This document shows, one piece after another, positions 3,336-19,656 of a stretch of DNA of 24,261 nucleotides. The DNA is taken from positions 1 through 24,261 of the IMG/VR virus record IMGVR_UViG_3300025782_000073. The stretch is one strand, 5' to 3'. The notes beneath the pieces are model-generated. The model worked only from the letters and a program-made list of their open reading frames with translations, did no database searches and was not told the DNA's origin. Positions within the stretch are counted from its first letter, which is position 1. Every line of letters starts with the position of its first letter. Source of the stretch: a virus. Its lineage: Duplodnaviria; Caudoviricetes. Made by a program: the position numbers and the translations under genes.

Positions 3336-3929
3336 ATGGCTAATCAGGTTGATAAGAGAGTTAAGGGTAGTGCCTTACCTTGGTTTATCACGTCGCGGGT
3401 CCGAGCTGATCGTCGGCTGGGGCTGAGTGAGATGGAGCAGGCGTGTCTAGCCCTGGAGGCTGAAGGTATGCCCTGCCCTGCCGATGTAAGCTTTGAGGCG
3501 TGGGTCAGGACCAACTTTGCCTATATCTGTGCTAGGTATATGGAGAAGTATCCAAAGCCTATTGGCAGTAAGGTAAAGCCCCGTCCGTCCAGGGCTCAGC
3601 GCAAGGCAGCTAGTCAACTTCGTCGTAACGCCAAGTCAGAAAAAGCGCCCGTTAAGCGGGTCGTCAAGGTGTGTGGTGTTGATGTGACCACCGACGCCTT
3701 TTTATCGACGTATGAATGGCGCAGGGTGCGTATGGAGGCGCTGAAGAAGTTTGGGCCTAAGTGTCAGTGCTGTGGAGCTACTCCCGCCCAAGGAGCTGTT
3801 ATGAACGTTGACCACATCAAGCCACGTAAGCTGTATCCAAACTTAGCCCTCAATGTAAACAATCTTCAGATCCTATGCCATGAGTGCAACCACGGTAAGG
3901 GCAATTGGGATCAAACCGACTGGCGGTAA
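3336..3929 (+). CDS. HNH endonuclease with basic N-terminal extension
   Basis: CQCCG...VDHIKP...NLQILCHECNHGK zinc-binding HNH motif; GGAG SD. Confidence 0.9.
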   Translation: MANQVDKRVKGSALPWFITSRVRADRRLGLSEMEQACLALEAEGMPCPADVSFEAWVRTNFAYICARYMEKYPKPIGSKVKPRPSRAQRKAASQLRRNAKSEKAPVKRVVKVCGVDVTTDAFLSTYEWRRVRMEALKKFGPKCQCCGATPAQGAVMNVDHIKPRKLYPNLALNVNNLQILCHECNHGKGNWDQTDWR

Positions 3930-3958
3930 AAATAATTTGACGGAGATGAAAAAAAGTA

Positions 3959-3986
3959 TTGCATGATAATTTTCCTATGATATGCT
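3959..3986 (+). promoter_or_regulatory. Sigma70-like promoter
   Basis: TTGCAT-16 bp-TATGCT with an A-tract upstream. Confidence 0.5.
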
Positions 3987-4041
3987 ACCACCTACAAAGA
4001 CACCAGAACAACCAGTTGACAATTACAGGGAGCACGGCAAA

Positions 4042-4497
4042 ATGAGAAAACGGACAAAGCGCAAGGTGTATGCACTGGTGAACGTTATTCAGCACGCTAT
4101 GGAGGGAGCGGCGCTGGTAGACGGTAAGCCGCTGGAGGATTTAAGGACGAGGGAGTTGCTGGCTTTGGAGGCGTTCCGATCGGGCACAGCGACACCGAAT
4201 GATTGGCGGTCTATTTCGGCGATGGTGAACATTGCTGAGGTGATGGCTAAGAAGGGCGTGGGGCCAGAGGCGATTGAGGTTTGCCGAGAGGCGGAGCTTC
4301 AGTTGCTGGATGACCATGTCAGGTTTGAGAAGACCGGAAAGATGGGCACGACAGCGGGGGGCTTAACGGCTTACCGCGAGGTGTATGAATACCATGACTT
4401 GCAGAGGACATCTATCAGCAGGTCAGAGTATGAGAGGTGGATAAAGAAGACCGCTGACATTTTGAAGAGCGGCCAGGATGTAGTTCATTTAACCTAA
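4042..4497 (+). CDS. Hypothetical phage protein
   Basis: ATG at 4042 after GGGAG; 151 aa (MRKRTKRK...). Confidence 0.75.
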   Translation: MRKRTKRKVYALVNVIQHAMEGAALVDGKPLEDLRTRELLALEAFRSGTATPNDWRSISAMVNIAEVMAKKGVGPEAIEVCREAELQLLDDHVRFEKTGKMGTTAGGLTAYREVYEYHDLQRTSISRSEYERWIKKTADILKSGQDVVHLT

Positions 4498-4509
4498 AAA
4501 GGAGTTTGT

Positions 4510-4857
4510 ATGAAACGAGAGATTAACGATAACGTGGCGGCTTGTAAACAGATCGATCACGACCAGCGGCTGGTAACGTTACCAGTTTACGTTCACCACT
4601 ACCGCCAATACGATGGCAAGTTTGCTTTTTCGATCTCATCGTTTGACCAAAGCAAATACAGCTCGGAGTATGTGTTGGTGGGTAAGACTGAGTTGGTGTA
4701 TTTAGTTCCAGAGGAATTCGATCCGATCGCCCAAGAGGTGGCTGCCCTGCGCCGCAAGAAGATGGACGTGATCAATGAGTTCAATAAGCGGGTCAAAGAG
4801 ATCGAGGAGCAGATCGGTAAGCTGACTGCTATTGAACACACGCCTGCGGAGTTCTGA
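4510..4857 (+). CDS. Hypothetical protein
   Basis: AAGGAG SD; 115 aa with a C-terminal coiled coil. Confidence 0.75.
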   Translation: MKREINDNVAACKQIDHDQRLVTLPVYVHHYRQYDGKFAFSISSFDQSKYSSEYVLVGKTELVYLVPEEFDPIAQEVAALRRKKMDVINEFNKRVKEIEEQIGKLTAIEHTPAEF

Positions 4858-7044: not shown

Positions 7045-9426
7045 ATGAGTAGCTTAAATTTGCGCGACTACCAAGCGCAGGCGATAGAGTCTCTGCGAAG
7101 GGGCTTTGCGGCGGGATACAGGACACAGATCCTGGTTGCGCCCACAGGGGCAGGCAAGACCGAGATGGCCATTGCCCTGCTAGAGGCGGCCATGAACAAG
7201 GGCAGTAACAGCTCGATGATCTTGGACCGCATTGTCTTGTGTGACCAGACCAGTAAGCGGCTGGAGAAATACAAGATTGATCACGGCGTTCTACAGGCTG
7301 GGCATTGGCGATACCGACCGTATGAAAAGATACAGGTCTGCTCGGCCCAGACGCTGGAGAGTCGCGGGGATTTCCCTGACCTCAAGCTCATGATCGTAGA
7401 TGAGTGCCACCAAACCAGAGCGGCCACGGTGGAGTTCATTAAGAACAACCCGAGCATCAAGGTGATCGGCCTAACAGCCACGCCCTTTACCAAGGGTCTT
7501 GGAAATATTTACGAGCATGTGGTCTCGCCCATCACGACCAAGCAGCTGGTGGAGCAGGGCAGTCTGGTTCCGCTTCGTGTATTCATTGCCAAAGAGATCG
7601 ACATGACGGGGGCCAAGAAGGTCGCTGGCGAGTGGTCTCAGAAAGAATCCACAGAGCGCGGGCTCAAGATCACGGGTGACGTGGTGGCTGAGTGGATCAA
7701 AAAGACCCATGAGATATTCAAGCGTCCGGTCAAGACCGTGGTGTTTGCCTCGGGGGTAAAGCACGCAGAGGACTTGTCACGCAAGTTTGCGGAGCAGGGA
7801 TACAACTTCATCAGCATTAGTTACAAGGATGCCGATGACTTCAAGCGTGACGTGGTCGAAGACTTTTCCAAGCCCGATACAGAGATTCATGGGCTCATAG
7901 CCACAGACATATTGACCAAGGGATTTGATTGTGTTCTGGAGGGATCTCGCGTCCTGACTGAAAGAGGACTTGTTGCCATTGACCAAATTTTGTTAAATGA
8001 TAAGATATGGGATGGTGTGGAGTTTGTTTCCCATCATGGTGTTATTTACAAAGGAGTGAGAGATGTCATCACATACGCCGGACTTACAGCCACCCCAGAT
8101 CACAAAGTCAAAACAGCACAAGGATGGATTGAATTTGGTGAATGTGCGAGACGTGGAATTCCAATCATTAAAACCGGAAATGGTGGGCAAGCGATTCAAG
8201 AACATGAAGGTCAGTTCTCCTTTGGTCTATCTTGCCAACAGACAGACCAACAAAGAGCAACTGATGTGCGAGTGTCTGGATTGTGGCCGCTTGGAATTGG
8301 TGCTTATTTCCATGTTGTATGCGCCTCAATGGGCTGGTTGTTCGGATTGCGCTGCTCCACAGTGGCTTGTTCGTCGATGCAAGGCGCAGAAAGCCAGATG
8401 CACGGATCCATTGCATCCGTCTTATCGGGATTATGGCGGACGAGGAATTCGCTTCATGTTCAGCAGTCCAAGACTGGCGGCGCAATGGATAAAGAAGAAT
8501 ATTGGAATACCAGAAAAAATATCAATCAACATACATCTGGACAGGATCAACAACAATGGTCATTACGAACCTGGAAATCTACGTTGGTCAACTCGGCAAG
8601 AGAACAACTCTCATACGCGTCGAAGCAAGTATGTAGAGCGATTTCATTTGTTTCGTCTAAATTATCCAGAGATCAAATACGCAGACAAGACCCTCAGAAA
8701 TTTGATGGGCTACGGCCTCAGCGACCAGCAGATCATCGAGAGATTCCATCTTCCATCAGACAAGCCAAAGGGCGTGTATGGGACATACTCAACTGCGGTC
8801 CCAGAAATTGCTTTACTTGCGAAGACCTCCTGATTCATAACTGCGCCGATGTTTTTATAGGTATATCTGCTAGGCCCTTCAGTAAATCATTGTCGTCGCA
8901 CATTCAACAGATGGGTCGGGTCATGCGTCCGTCTCCTGGAAAATCCTTCGGTGTCTGGCTTGACCATTCGGGCAACTACATTCGTTTCCGAGAGGATTGG
9001 GATGATGTGTTTGCGAACGGTGTATCTGAGCTGGATGATGGCAAGGAGAAGGCCAAGAAGGAGAAGACAGACAAGGAGAAGGAGGCGGCCAAGTGTCCGA
9101 AGTGTGGCGCGTTGTGGCGGAGCAGTAGTGACACCTGCGCCCATTGTGGCTACATCAAGGAGACCAAGAAGAAGTTGGCAAGTGTTCCAGGTGAGATGGA
9201 AGAATTAACAGCCAATGCAAACCGAGACGAGAAGCAGGAGTTTTGGTCTGAGCTGCAATACAAAGTGAAGGTTGAGGGTTGGAACCCAGGTCGAGCGGCG
9301 CATACCTACAGGGACAAGTTCGGGGTTTGGCCTAGGGGTTTACACGATAACGTTCGAGTGCCAAGTTTGGCCACAGAGCGGTTCATTAAGTCTAGAATTA
9401 TTGCCTACATGAAAGGGAAGAAGTGA
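7045..9426 (+). CDS. Superfamily 2 (RadD/YejH-like) DNA helicase interrupted by an intein
   Basis: APTGAGKT, IVDECH, GLTATP, TKGFD|CADV, QQMGRVMR motifs; C-terminal CPKC..CAHC zinc ribbon; GAGGGA SD before ATG 7045. Confidence 0.92.
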   Translation: MSSLNLRDYQAQAIESLRRGFAAGYRTQILVAPTGAGKTEMAIALLEAAMNKGSNSSMILDRIVLCDQTSKRLEKYKIDHGVLQAGHWRYRPYEKIQVCSAQTLESRGDFPDLKLMIVDECHQTRAATVEFIKNNPSIKVIGLTATPFTKGLGNIYEHVVSPITTKQLVEQGSLVPLRVFIAKEIDMTGAKKVAGEWSQKESTERGLKITGDVVAEWIKKTHEIFKRPVKTVVFASGVKHAEDLSRKFAEQGYNFISISYKDADDFKRDVVEDFSKPDTEIHGLIATDILTKGFDCVLEGSRVLTERGLVAIDQILLNDKIWDGVEFVSHHGVIYKGVRDVITYAGLTATPDHKVKTAQGWIEFGECARRGIPIIKTGNGGQAIQEHEGQFSFGLSCQQTDQQRATDVRVSGLWPLGIGAYFHVVCASMGWLFGLRCSTVACSSMQGAESQMHGSIASVLSGLWRTRNSLHVQQSKTGGAMDKEEYWNTRKNINQHTSGQDQQQWSLRTWKSTLVNSAREQLSYASKQVCRAISFVSSKLSRDQIRRQDPQKFDGLRPQRPADHREIPSSIRQAKGRVWDILNCGPRNCFTCEDLLIHNCADVFIGISARPFSKSLSSHIQQMGRVMRPSPGKSFGVWLDHSGNYIRFREDWDDVFANGVSELDDGKEKAKKEKTDKEKEAAKCPKCGALWRSSSDTCAHCGYIKETKKKLASVPGEMEELTANANRDEKQEFWSELQYKVKVEGWNPGRAAHTYRDKFGVWPRGLHDNVRVPSLATERFIKSRIIAYMKGKK
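7930..8841 (+). mobile_element. Intein (304 aa) inserted in helicase motif V
   Basis: Block A CVLEGSRVLT, block B ATPDHKV, block F RVWDI...CF, block G LLIHN followed by +1 Cys; removal restores TKGFDCADV. Confidence 0.92.
8063..8833 (+). CDS. HNH-type homing endonuclease nested in the +1 frame of the intein
   Basis: AAGGAG 6 nt before the ATG; motifs GKRF, CECLDCG, RCTDPLHPSYRDYGGRGI and LDRINNNGHYEPGNLRWSTRQEN of phage HNH-like homing endonucleases. Confidence 0.85.
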   Translation: MSSHTPDLQPPQITKSKQHKDGLNLVNVRDVEFQSLKPEMVGKRFKNMKVSSPLVYLANRQTNKEQLMCECLDCGRLELVLISMLYAPQWAGCSDCAAPQWLVRRCKAQKARCTDPLHPSYRDYGGRGIRFMFSSPRLAAQWIKKNIGIPEKISINIHLDRINNNGHYEPGNLRWSTRQENNSHTRRSKYVERFHLFRLNYPEIKYADKTLRNLMGYGLSDQQIIERFHLPSDKPKGVYGTYSTAVPEIALLAKTS

Positions 9427-10292
9427 TGGATTTCCTGCAGTTCGCAAGGGCCAAAGGGCTCTTGATGGAAACGTTACCACCGATCGGGGTATGGAAAAGA
9501 TACGCAACAGAAGACCATCCATCTAAGCGCAACGGCTCTGCCAAATACATGGGCACACATGGATTCGTAGTCAACCATGCAATGGACACAAGCGCGGACA
9601 CCTGGAGGCCAGACAGTTCTTATGTAATGGACGCTGCAAAGCAAGCCGAGCTGGCCAGACAGGCGCGTGAAGCTGAGTTACGAACACAGGAATTGAACCG
9701 AGAGGCGGCGCAGAAGGCGGCATGGATACTGAAGCAGTCCCGCTTCGGCCGCCATAAGTATCTGATCAACAAAGGATTTCCAGACGAGGAGGGTAATGTC
9801 TGGAACCAGGATGGTCGGTCATTGTTAATAATTCCAATGCGGCTCGGTGCGCGGCTGGTCGGATGCCAAATGATTGACGAGCAGGGGCAGAAGAAATTTC
9901 TGTTCGGCCAACGGACAAGTAATGCGTCCTTCGTGTTCGACAACAAAGGCCCCAACATATTGTGCGAGGGGTATGCCACAGCGTTGAGCGTTCGGGCTGC
10001 CTTACGCGCCATGAAGCGGCGGTATACGATTCATGTTTGCTTTAGTGCGTCCAACATGATCAAGGTCGCTGCTGGTCTGCCATCGGGGCTGGTGATTGCG
10101 GACAATGATTCGTCGGCCACAGGGGAGAGGGCGGCCAAGCAGATTGGTTGGCCATACTGGATGTCGTCGGTCATAGGCAATGACGCAAACGACGATATGC
10201 AGGCCCAGGGAATCTATAAATTCTCTCAGGGCCTGGTCAGGTCATTGCACCTTCTGGTTGGCCACAATGAACGGTTGAACGGCCAGAATTAG
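9426..10292 (+). CDS. TOPRIM-domain DNA primase
   Basis: LCEGYATA, IADND and DAND TOPRIM motifs; TGATG coupling to the helicase. Confidence 0.85.
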   Translation: MDFLQFARAKGLLMETLPPIGVWKRYATEDHPSKRNGSAKYMGTHGFVVNHAMDTSADTWRPDSSYVMDAAKQAELARQAREAELRTQELNREAAQKAAWILKQSRFGRHKYLINKGFPDEEGNVWNQDGRSLLIIPMRLGARLVGCQMIDEQGQKKFLFGQRTSNASFVFDNKGPNILCEGYATALSVRAALRAMKRRYTIHVCFSASNMIKVAAGLPSGLVIADNDSSATGERAAKQIGWPYWMSSVIGNDANDDMQAQGIYKFSQGLVRSLHLLVGHNERLNGQN

Positions 10293-19038: not shown

Positions 19039-19229
19039 TTCAGAAATTCGCAAGCGTATTGCGCGAACAAATACGCAAAGACATGAACAACTACGCCGAT
19101 GATTTGGCTAGTGGTCATTGCCGTACTTTTGAAGAGTACCAAAAACTCTGTGGGGTGATTCAAGGCCTAGCCCAGGCAGAGCGTTATGTTATCGACCTTG
19201 TAGAGAAAGTTGAAAAATCAGATGAGTGA
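19035..19229 (+). CDS. Small helical head-module protein
   Basis: ATGA overlap with the portal; LASG...FEEYQKLCGVIQGL. Confidence 0.75.
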   Translation: MIQKFASVLREQIRKDMNNYADDLASGHCRTFEEYQKLCGVIQGLAQAERYVIDLVEKVEKSDE

Positions 19230-19656
19230 TCTTATTCTGCCACCAGGGTTAACCCTGCCTAAGCAAATTCAACCAGTGGATGCTCCGGCTGATACTGATA
19301 CGAATGAGCAAAAAGCAACGATGCTGCCAGAACCTTCTGGTTGGAAATTGTTGTGTGTCGTGCCTGATGTCTCTGACAAGATTGCAGGTACTGACCTTGA
19401 CCTTGTAAAACCGTCTGACCTGGTCCGCCAAGAAGAACATGCCACTACGGTATTGTTTGTCTTGAAGGTAGGTGTGGATGCGTACAAGGACACCGCCAAG
19501 TTCCCTAGTGGTGCTTGGGCCAAGCCTGGTGATTTTGTCGTGACCCGTGCTTATGCCGGTACACGCCTGAAGATCTACGGTAAAGAATTCCGCCTGATCA
19601 ACGACGACCAAGTCGAAGCAGTGGTGGACGATCCACGTGGCGTAACACGCGCATAA
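19222..19656 (+). CDS. groES: GroES-like co-chaperonin (Cpn10)
   Basis: PSGWKLL...VLKVG...KPGDFV..RAYAGTRLKIYGKEFRLINDDQVEAVV matches the Cpn10 pattern. Confidence 0.82.
   Translation: MSDLILPPGLTLPKQIQPVDAPADTDTNEQKATMLPEPSGWKLLCVVPDVSDKIAGTDLDLVKPSDLVRQEEHATTVLFVLKVGVDAYKDTAKFPSGAWAKPGDFVVTRAYAGTRLKIYGKEFRLINDDQVEAVVDDPRGVTRA

Follow-up and report, generated by a model that had tools for sequence, protein, structure and literature searches.

The DNA analysed here (the window) is a metagenome-derived phage record of 24 kb (24,261 nucleotides (nt); IMG/VR record IMGVR_UViG_3300025782_000073), in which helicase, primase, terminase, portal and capsid genes were recognised with Pfam and PHROG. 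Its DNA helicase gene contains 304 extra codons (7930-8841). They very probably form a class 1-type intein whose homing endonuclease is encoded separately, in the +1 reading frame of the same DNA, with the free nuclease spreading the intein. Two frames are open in this intein, selection on them is complementary, its ends are Hint-like, it was transferred recently, and a cysteine at the residue following it (+1) is tied to its presence. The features to which the text refers are as follows.

7045-9426, + strand: phage DNA helicase of superfamily 2 (SF2; ResIII/DEAD-like), starting at ATG 7045 (PHROG 16, E = 4e-68; Pfam ResIII, E = 4e-21).
7930-8184, + strand: N-terminal splicing region of the intein with C1 and block B (T55-x-x-H58 at 8092-8103), from invariant residues, the Hint fold and a predicted local distance difference test score (pLDDT) of 96-98 over residues 1-80.
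8051-8056, + strand: Shine-Dalgarno (SD) sequence AAGGAG, supplied by intein codons K41-G42-V43; its anti-SD pairing of -8.2 kcal/mol is the strongest of the candidate starts.
8063-8833, + strand: nested +1 open reading frame (ORF) of 256 amino acids (aa), matching PHROG 3377 and 374 ('HNH endonuclease'), with a mean pLDDT of 87 and a ratio of nonsynonymous to synonymous substitution rates (dN/dS) of 0.10 in its centre.
8185-8772, + strand: frame-0 linker of the intein, stop-free, S/Q/R/G-rich, predicted to be disordered and not conserved as protein (pLDDT, dN/dS and composition).
8540-8605, + strand: predicted active-site motif of the nested protein, D160-R161-x6-Y168-x3-N172-x8-N181, from conservation and a weak fold match to PacI.
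8773-8841, + strand: C-terminal splicing region of the intein with block F (V283-W-D285) and block G (H303-N304), from invariant residues and a frame-0 dN/dS of 0.11.
8842-8982, + strand: apparently foreign 3' helicase tract starting at the Cys+1 codon TGC, likely a co-conversion tract, from mismatches against locus L005 and the similarity of relatives.

The insertion point lies between the helicase sequences TKGFD and QQMGR, which we take to be motifs V and VI. The intein boundaries are precise: two intein-free phage loci, L005 and L006, align with the window up to 7929 and resume after 8841, and one run contig joins 7929 directly to 8842. Frame 0 reads C1, T55-x-x-H58, V283-W-D285 and H303-N304 followed by Cys, i.e. 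the 304-aa intein with complete splicing motifs that a first-pass annotation of this DNA had described. Scans with intein and nuclease alignments recovered 107 distinct records of the family, of which 13 were set aside (three cut by contig or locus ends, nine with a divergent N-terminus, and L147 with a frameshift). Frame 0 is open in all 94 complete relatives; 91 of them carry the nuclease in the +1 frame and three are mini-inteins. The splicing residues C1, T55, H58, D285 and N304 are each kept in 91/91 members, G290 is likewise invariant, and +1 is occupied by Cys in 84 members and by Ser in the other seven. A structure model of the intein, based on an alignment of the 91 sequences, reached pLDDT 96-98 for residues 1-80 and 281-304. 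It matched the Hint fold of the Mtu RecA intein (2imz; Z 16.3, root-mean-square deviation (rmsd) 2.4, 121 residues), and its top 33 structural matches were all Hint domains. Boundaries, motifs and modelled fold thus identify the insert as a class 1-type intein that is predicted to splice. An in-frame insertion with a Hint fold needs no structured RNA element to explain it; Rfam at the gathering threshold gave no match in the window and a tRNA search found none there.

The centre of frame 0 reads like off-frame sequence, as had been suggested. Its pLDDT is mostly below 50 (residues 90-221), its dN/dS exceeds 2, and Pfam and PHROG profile scans of it gave no family match. Therefore, the helicase intein does not have the canonical bifunctional layout, in which blocks B and F flank an in-frame endonuclease. 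A compact splicing domain of about 110 aa apparently tolerates an arbitrary linker of 195 aa.

The +1 frame of the same DNA is intact from ATG 8063, which AAGGAG precedes by 6 nt, to TGA 8831-8833. The encoded protein contains the motifs CECLDCG, YRDYGGRGI and LDRINNNGHYEPGNLRW, and consists of an unconstrained leader (about 39 aa), an N-terminal beta domain with two CxxC pairs, an HNH-type core and a C-terminal helical domain. When the two frames were searched separately, matches to HNH families of PHROG were confined to the +1 frame (3377, E = 4e-19; 374, E = 4e-18; also 2081; range 4e-19 to 8e-11), while frame 0 gave the Hint fold. The +2 frame of the intein is full of stops, and an antisense ORF of 105 aa (8168-8485) had no Pfam match. 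The first-pass annotation placed the nested ORF over blocks B, F and G; it does cover B and F and reaches the start of G, but it excludes H303-N304. Its stop sits in the codons of L301 and I302, 8 nt before the intein end. The L-I/V-H-N codons of the intein create this stop, and in 54 of 91 relatives its distance from the end of the intein is likewise exactly 8 nt. Chance does not account for dual openness over 771 nt: randomising the codons of a fixed +1 protein put a mean of 15.8 stops into frame 0, doing the same with frame 0 fixed put 7.1 into the +1 frame, and in neither case was the other frame open in any of 10,000 trials.

Selection on the two frames was compared by dN/dS pooled over 10 pairs of 72-92% DNA identity. 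In the centre the ratio was 0.10 in the +1 frame versus 2.37 in frame 0, and 63% of the substitutions fell on third positions of +1 codons. The relation is reversed where block B is overlapped (0.88 in +1, 0.28 in frame 0) and in the C-terminal overlap (1.03 in +1, 0.11 in frame 0). The window against L004 alone gave 0.07 (+1) and 2.44 (frame 0) in the centre. Since the ratios are opposite by region, the intein DNA is open in two frames but constrained mostly in one at a time, either frame serving as filler where the other works. This bears out the earlier expectation that selection in the centre acts on the +1 frame while frame 0 just avoids stops, and refines it for blocks B, F and G, where frame 0 is conserved and the +1 frame is stop-free but unconstrained. 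The nested gene is therefore an intact out-of-frame nuclease ORF under purifying selection within an open intein frame.

The intein differs from that of L003 at 1 of 870 nt and from that of L002 at 7 of 912 (about 99% identity), whereas the helicases are about 30% different and the flanks in L002 and L003 show 9-25 differences per 60-base bin (about 15-40%). Conversely, the intein-free L005 and L006 differ from the window upstream of the intein at only 15 and 34 of 1,499 bases. A near-identical intein in divergent helicases, together with near-identical phages that lack it, points to recent transfer, and the patchy distribution and horizontal transfer expected of an out-of-frame intein are both seen. 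Intein-free alleles and recent transfer had been anticipated in the first-pass annotation, but the empty site that it reconstituted was not found in the closest intein-free phages: it proposed GAT followed at the insertion point by TGCGCCGAT, and those phages read GAC followed by GTGCCTGAC, with Val at +1. The putative cleavage substrate should therefore be the Val allele.

The 141 nt that follow the intein (8842-8982) differ from L005 at 35 positions; no other window of 141 nt has more than 4 differences upstream or more than 8 downstream. The tract starts with TGC (Cys) in the window and with GTG (Val) in the empty alleles. At 76 loci empty at this site, the +1 residue is Val in 64, Cys in 8 and Thr in 4. 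By similarity and by GC content at third codon positions (GC3) the tract looks foreign: 71 of 77 relatives are closer to the L005 version than to that of the window, and GC3 is 0.66 in the L005 tract and 0.70 in the shared N-extein, against 0.51 in the window tract (0.31 in its first 16 codons) and 0.35 at the intein start. At a second site, L094 and L096 have Cys where empty alleles of 86-94% identity have Asp, with all three bases of the codon changed, and their excess differences are limited to the first 30 nt 3' of the intein. At most family sites, homologues have a residue other than Cys, Ser or Thr in the aligned column, though the alignment may be shifted by one column in places. We discarded the idea that such tracts are always directed to helicase motif VI: in L094 and L096, whose intein occupies the downstream site, the excess is again on the 3' side, which there faces away from that motif. 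The L004 helicase, which has the intein at the window's site, reads VWLCHSGNY after motif VI, with Cys at +1 of another family site and no intein there (1 of 39 others); this Cys is possibly a scar of intein loss.

Several results weigh against a mobile intein with a nested nuclease. Pfam finds no intein or HNH family in either frame of the window locus, and its Hint_2 and Intein_splicing families each match only one of 91 family members. The pairs pooled for dN/dS are not fully independent, and two of them come from the window's own cluster. Eighty loci were found with the nuclease query, a bias toward nuclease-bearing copies; when only the intein frame served as query, the +1 ORF was present in 42 of the 44 loci found. 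Finally, a 20-nt pattern search of metagenome contigs did not find the donor of the 141-nt tract (of its six matches, L216 is another copy of this phage and the other five are unrelated), so that ordinary recombination could account for the window's event. The missing donor also leaves room for a reading in which the tract marks loss rather than gain, L005 and L006 deriving from an intein-bearing allele overwritten by a foreign Val+1 allele. A pairwise comparison alone gives no direction, but the resemblance of most relatives to the L005 version, and a GC3 in the window tract that lies near that of the intein start and is unlike those of the L005 tract and N-extein, make loss an unlikely account of the tract.

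The predicted active site also departs from expectation. The canonical catalytic His of HNH nucleases is absent, with Arg161 at its place in 85/85 sequences. R161, Y168 and N172 are each conserved in 85/85, D160 in 83/85, and N or Q occupies position 181 in 84/85. In PacI, a Tyr is used in place of His, according to the available parts of two papers (PMC5714182, PMC4081073), and by this analogy the nested protein probably has a Tyr-dependent, PacI-like active site in which Tyr168 replaces the usual His. As far as these papers and a third (PMC3384342; likewise available in part) describe them, the PacI-type beta-beta-alpha-metal nucleases appear to share with the nested protein the lack of a His general base, a loop Tyr, Asp and Asn as likely metal ligands, and Cys4 zinc sites. 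PacI itself is a restriction enzyme, unlike the predicted homing nuclease of the helicase intein. The structural evidence is a further counterweight: the VIA fold match to PacI is weak, at a level that chance can produce (Z 5.0, rmsd 2.9, 76 residues, 99-189), PacI ranked only second, below an unrelated chain, and the residue equivalence is a presumed one at 13% sequence identity. Foldseek with the nuclease model gave no significant match (E <= 0.001), an absence that is not evidence of a new fold, and sequence searches of the PDB gave no relevant match. By its profile matches, and despite the missing His, the nested protein is a predicted HNH-family nuclease. Elsewhere in the window, a canonical free-standing HNH gene (3336-3929; Pfam HNH, E = 4e-8) has profile matches unrelated to those of the nested ORF.

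The Arg161 substitution and the weak structural support would also suit a conserved DNA-binding protein or an inactive nuclease, in an intein spread by ordinary recombination. We regard this as quite unlikely. The metal-ligand-type residues D160 and N181 and the invariant Tyr are retained, as in an enzyme of the PacI type. A tree of the ORFs groups them by host gene and site, as expected of a site-specific enzyme, although relatedness alone also clusters; the tree is a quick version from which no origin or order of events was drawn. Decayed and mini forms (L105, L114, L182, L190, L206, L209) occur as in a homing cycle. A stop interrupts the nuclease in two of 91 members, and L105 has lost the core.

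The distribution of +1 stops locates the start of the nuclease gene. In 88 inteins the +1 frame has 340 stops in 5,457 codons up to reference codon 62 and 2 in 19,194 codons at positions 63-280, where the +2 frame has 1,061. Past the last +1 stop, 71 of 88 have an ATG or GTG whose anti-SD pairing is at least as strong as -5 kcal/mol, compared with 8-15 of 88 in six control windows; with a stricter cut-off of -7, the numbers are 48 inteins versus 0-4. The nested start alternates among codons 41, 45, 49 and 63, typically just past the last +1 stop. These statistics indirectly favour independent initiation over frameshifting. Upstream of the nested ATG there were two sigma-70-like matches, where chance alone would give 0.7, and RNA folding near the SD gave a z of 0.49; neither was significant. 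The sequencing runs listed for this DNA included no RNA run, which is uninformative on expression. Were the nuclease instead made as a fusion, through programmed +1 ribosomal frameshifting from the helicase and intein frame, the lack of conservation in the +1 protein until about intein codon 84 would be understandable, and in L147 a frameshift does fuse the nuclease to the helicase frame. Yet +1 stops are gone from codon 63, about 20 codons ahead of the conserved domain, stop opportunities are used in 1/222 cases at codons 63-85 versus 38-43% at codons 1-40, and the enriched SD-start pairs shift in step with the last stop; on these stop and start patterns, we consider frameshifting very improbable. 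As the window is a metagenome-derived record, one might lastly suspect compensating frameshift errors that mask an ordinary in-frame nuclease intein, but this is refuted, since contigs of run X2 (possibly the source) and of run X18 (7798-9500; not marked as source) match without differences or gaps, the intein in L002, L003 and L004 has no indels, the same 771 nt are open in both frames, and the +1 layout is common to 91 relatives and to the GenBank phages RW, APSE-1, SFCi1 and vB_Gva_AB1.

Homologues thus keep both frames open, as had been expected, and they are widely placed. At 95% identity the inteins form 88 clusters, 46 in SF2 helicases at seven aligned positions, 36 in PolA-like polymerases at eight, five in DnaB-like proteins and one in an SNF2 helicase; the family spans 17 aligned sites in phage helicases and polymerases. 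The PolA and DnaB labels are our assumption from motifs, with PolA also backed by annotated phage matches. In a related intein of Pseudomonas phage MR14 (L215:1575-2336), it is the +2 frame, not the +1, that contains a related nuclease ORF. Six of the nine records with a divergent N-terminus were inspected, and are split inteins around an overlapping nuclease gene. They fracture PolA-like genes (L181:1987-2933, L185, L188:1996-2957, L194, L197 and L198): the N-terminal half of the intein ends at a stop, the C-terminal half begins in the third frame, and a related nuclease ORF still overlaps the N-terminal half in +1. A second, contiguous intein of the family lies downstream in L188, L191, L194 and L197. 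At one site, with exteins 95-99% identical, L190 has a mini-intein of 135 aa (3747-4151) where L188 and L191 have full inteins of 315 aa (3747-4691). In L147 (2156-3096) the frameshift lies near the first CxxC. It brings the nuclease core into the frame of the helicase and the N-terminal intein half, while the C-terminal half stays in another frame; this is either an assembly error or the frame fusion proposed by Gosselin et al. Outside the intein family, an ORF just after the portal gene of the window (19210-19656) has a weak PHROG match to the co-chaperonin GroES (E = 4e-6).

The following mechanism is proposed for the helicase intein. Translation of the helicase frame would yield a precursor in which the two Hint halves fold around the disordered linker of about 195 aa, and the intein would splice out through Cys1, T-x-x-H, His-Asn and Cys+1, restoring the helicase. 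Ribosomes may also initiate internally at AAGGAG-N6-ATG 8063 and produce a free beta-beta-alpha-metal nuclease of 256 aa. In mixed infections, this nuclease would cut or nick intein-free helicase alleles near the site, and repair would copy the intein plus the 3' flank. Repair products without Cys+1 would be lost, as their helicase would not splice. The one-sided 141-nt tract may be explained by the Val found at +1 in most empty alleles (64/76), so that a working helicase requires an imported Cys codon. The 3' polarity may reflect either the cut position or just the Cys+1 filter. The first-pass notion of a two-protein selfish element is thus supported on its testable predictions, with translation, splicing and cleavage as predicted steps. 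A bolder version, to which we give somewhat less than an even chance, is that the intein brings along the cysteine that it needs at +1: a Tyr-dependent nuclease acting in trans would cut 3' of the insertion point, the Cys codon would be co-converted, and positions without a nucleophile could be colonised. If so, even a near-invariant Asp or Gly would be replaceable, and the presence of one family at seven SF2 helicase and eight PolA positions would be explained. The split (L181-type), overlapped (window), fused (L147) and mini forms would then be stages of endonuclease gain and loss by inteins.

Annotation pipelines assign a single gene to each stretch, and neither frame is recognised by Pfam. 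As a result, a widespread phage element would be read as a 'degenerate' intein although it has an intact mobility gene on which selection acts. Together with L005 and L006, the window forms a near-isogenic filled/empty pair that names a real target allele. Cultured phages such as Caulobacter phage RW share the layout, so that translation and homing are open to direct testing. The DNA polymerase P45 intein of phage APSE-1 (GenBank AF157835; L213:1685-2353) belongs to the same family and differs from the helicase intein in its PolA host. The APSE-1 protein P46, annotated without function, is the C-terminal part of that intein's nested +1 nuclease, the gene having been called too short at its 5' end (profile E = 8e-48).

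The first-pass annotation left novelty to a literature check. The overlapping layout proved to be in print for other nucleases, with first descriptions in other inteins dating from 2025-26. No paper was found on a +1 HNH intein family in helicases or PolA, in a search that subscription papers mostly lay outside and with preprint supplements that may list members. In the available part of their preprint, Gosselin, Arsenault and Gogarten (bioRxiv 10.1101/2025.01.02.630785) describe actinobacteriophage inteins with frame-3 EndoVII-like and antisense nucleases. Like the helicase intein, these combine a functional-looking intein with a nuclease in another frame and signs of ongoing transfer. Their types differ (in-frame HNH, antisense LAGLIDADG or VSR, frame-3 EndoVII-like), as do their hosts (polymerase, capsid, terminase and thymidylate synthase genes, against a helicase in the window), and in their inteins the ORFs are said to 'typically lie outside' the splicing domain, whereas the window's +1 ORF overlaps blocks B, F and part of G. 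Another parallel is the cyanobacterial dnaX intein with an out-of-frame LAGLIDADG gene (Phillips, DeSimone and Gogarten, bioRxiv 10.64898/2026.09.14.751524; available in part), which shares the overlapping-frame nuclease, the disordered in-frame linker, an SD before the nested start, frame-dependent dN/dS, and the coexistence of empty, mini and full alleles. It differs in being a LAGLIDADG element at one site of a chromosomal gene, whereas the present family is HNH-type and occupies 17 aligned sites in phage helicases and polymerases.

Two further systems concern the +1 residue, again as described in the accessible parts of the papers. In the ShiLan element (Arsenault 2025, PMC11855218), an out-of-frame HNH gene is hidden in the stop-free frame of a phage methylase, invaded alleles have Ser or Thr at +1 where empty ones have Pro, and imported +1 residues were raised as a speculation. 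ShiLan has no splicing domain and no detectable ribosome-binding site, unlike the window intein with its complete Hint domain and clear SD. In the haloarchaeal MCM-d intein (PMC10643990), Pro-to-Ser co-conversion at +1 similarly accompanies invasion, the nucleophile having to be co-converted. Such co-conversion is described there as infrequent, while residues that are not nucleophiles dominate in homologues at most sites of the present family; and, unlike in MCM-d, the tract of the helicase intein is delimited against an empty allele of 99% identity. The import of a splicing nucleophile in a delimited, one-sided tract had previously been mostly an inferred idea. Beyond the known layout, the present system thus adds a filled/empty pair with a Cys-importing tract, start-site statistics and a predicted active site without His.

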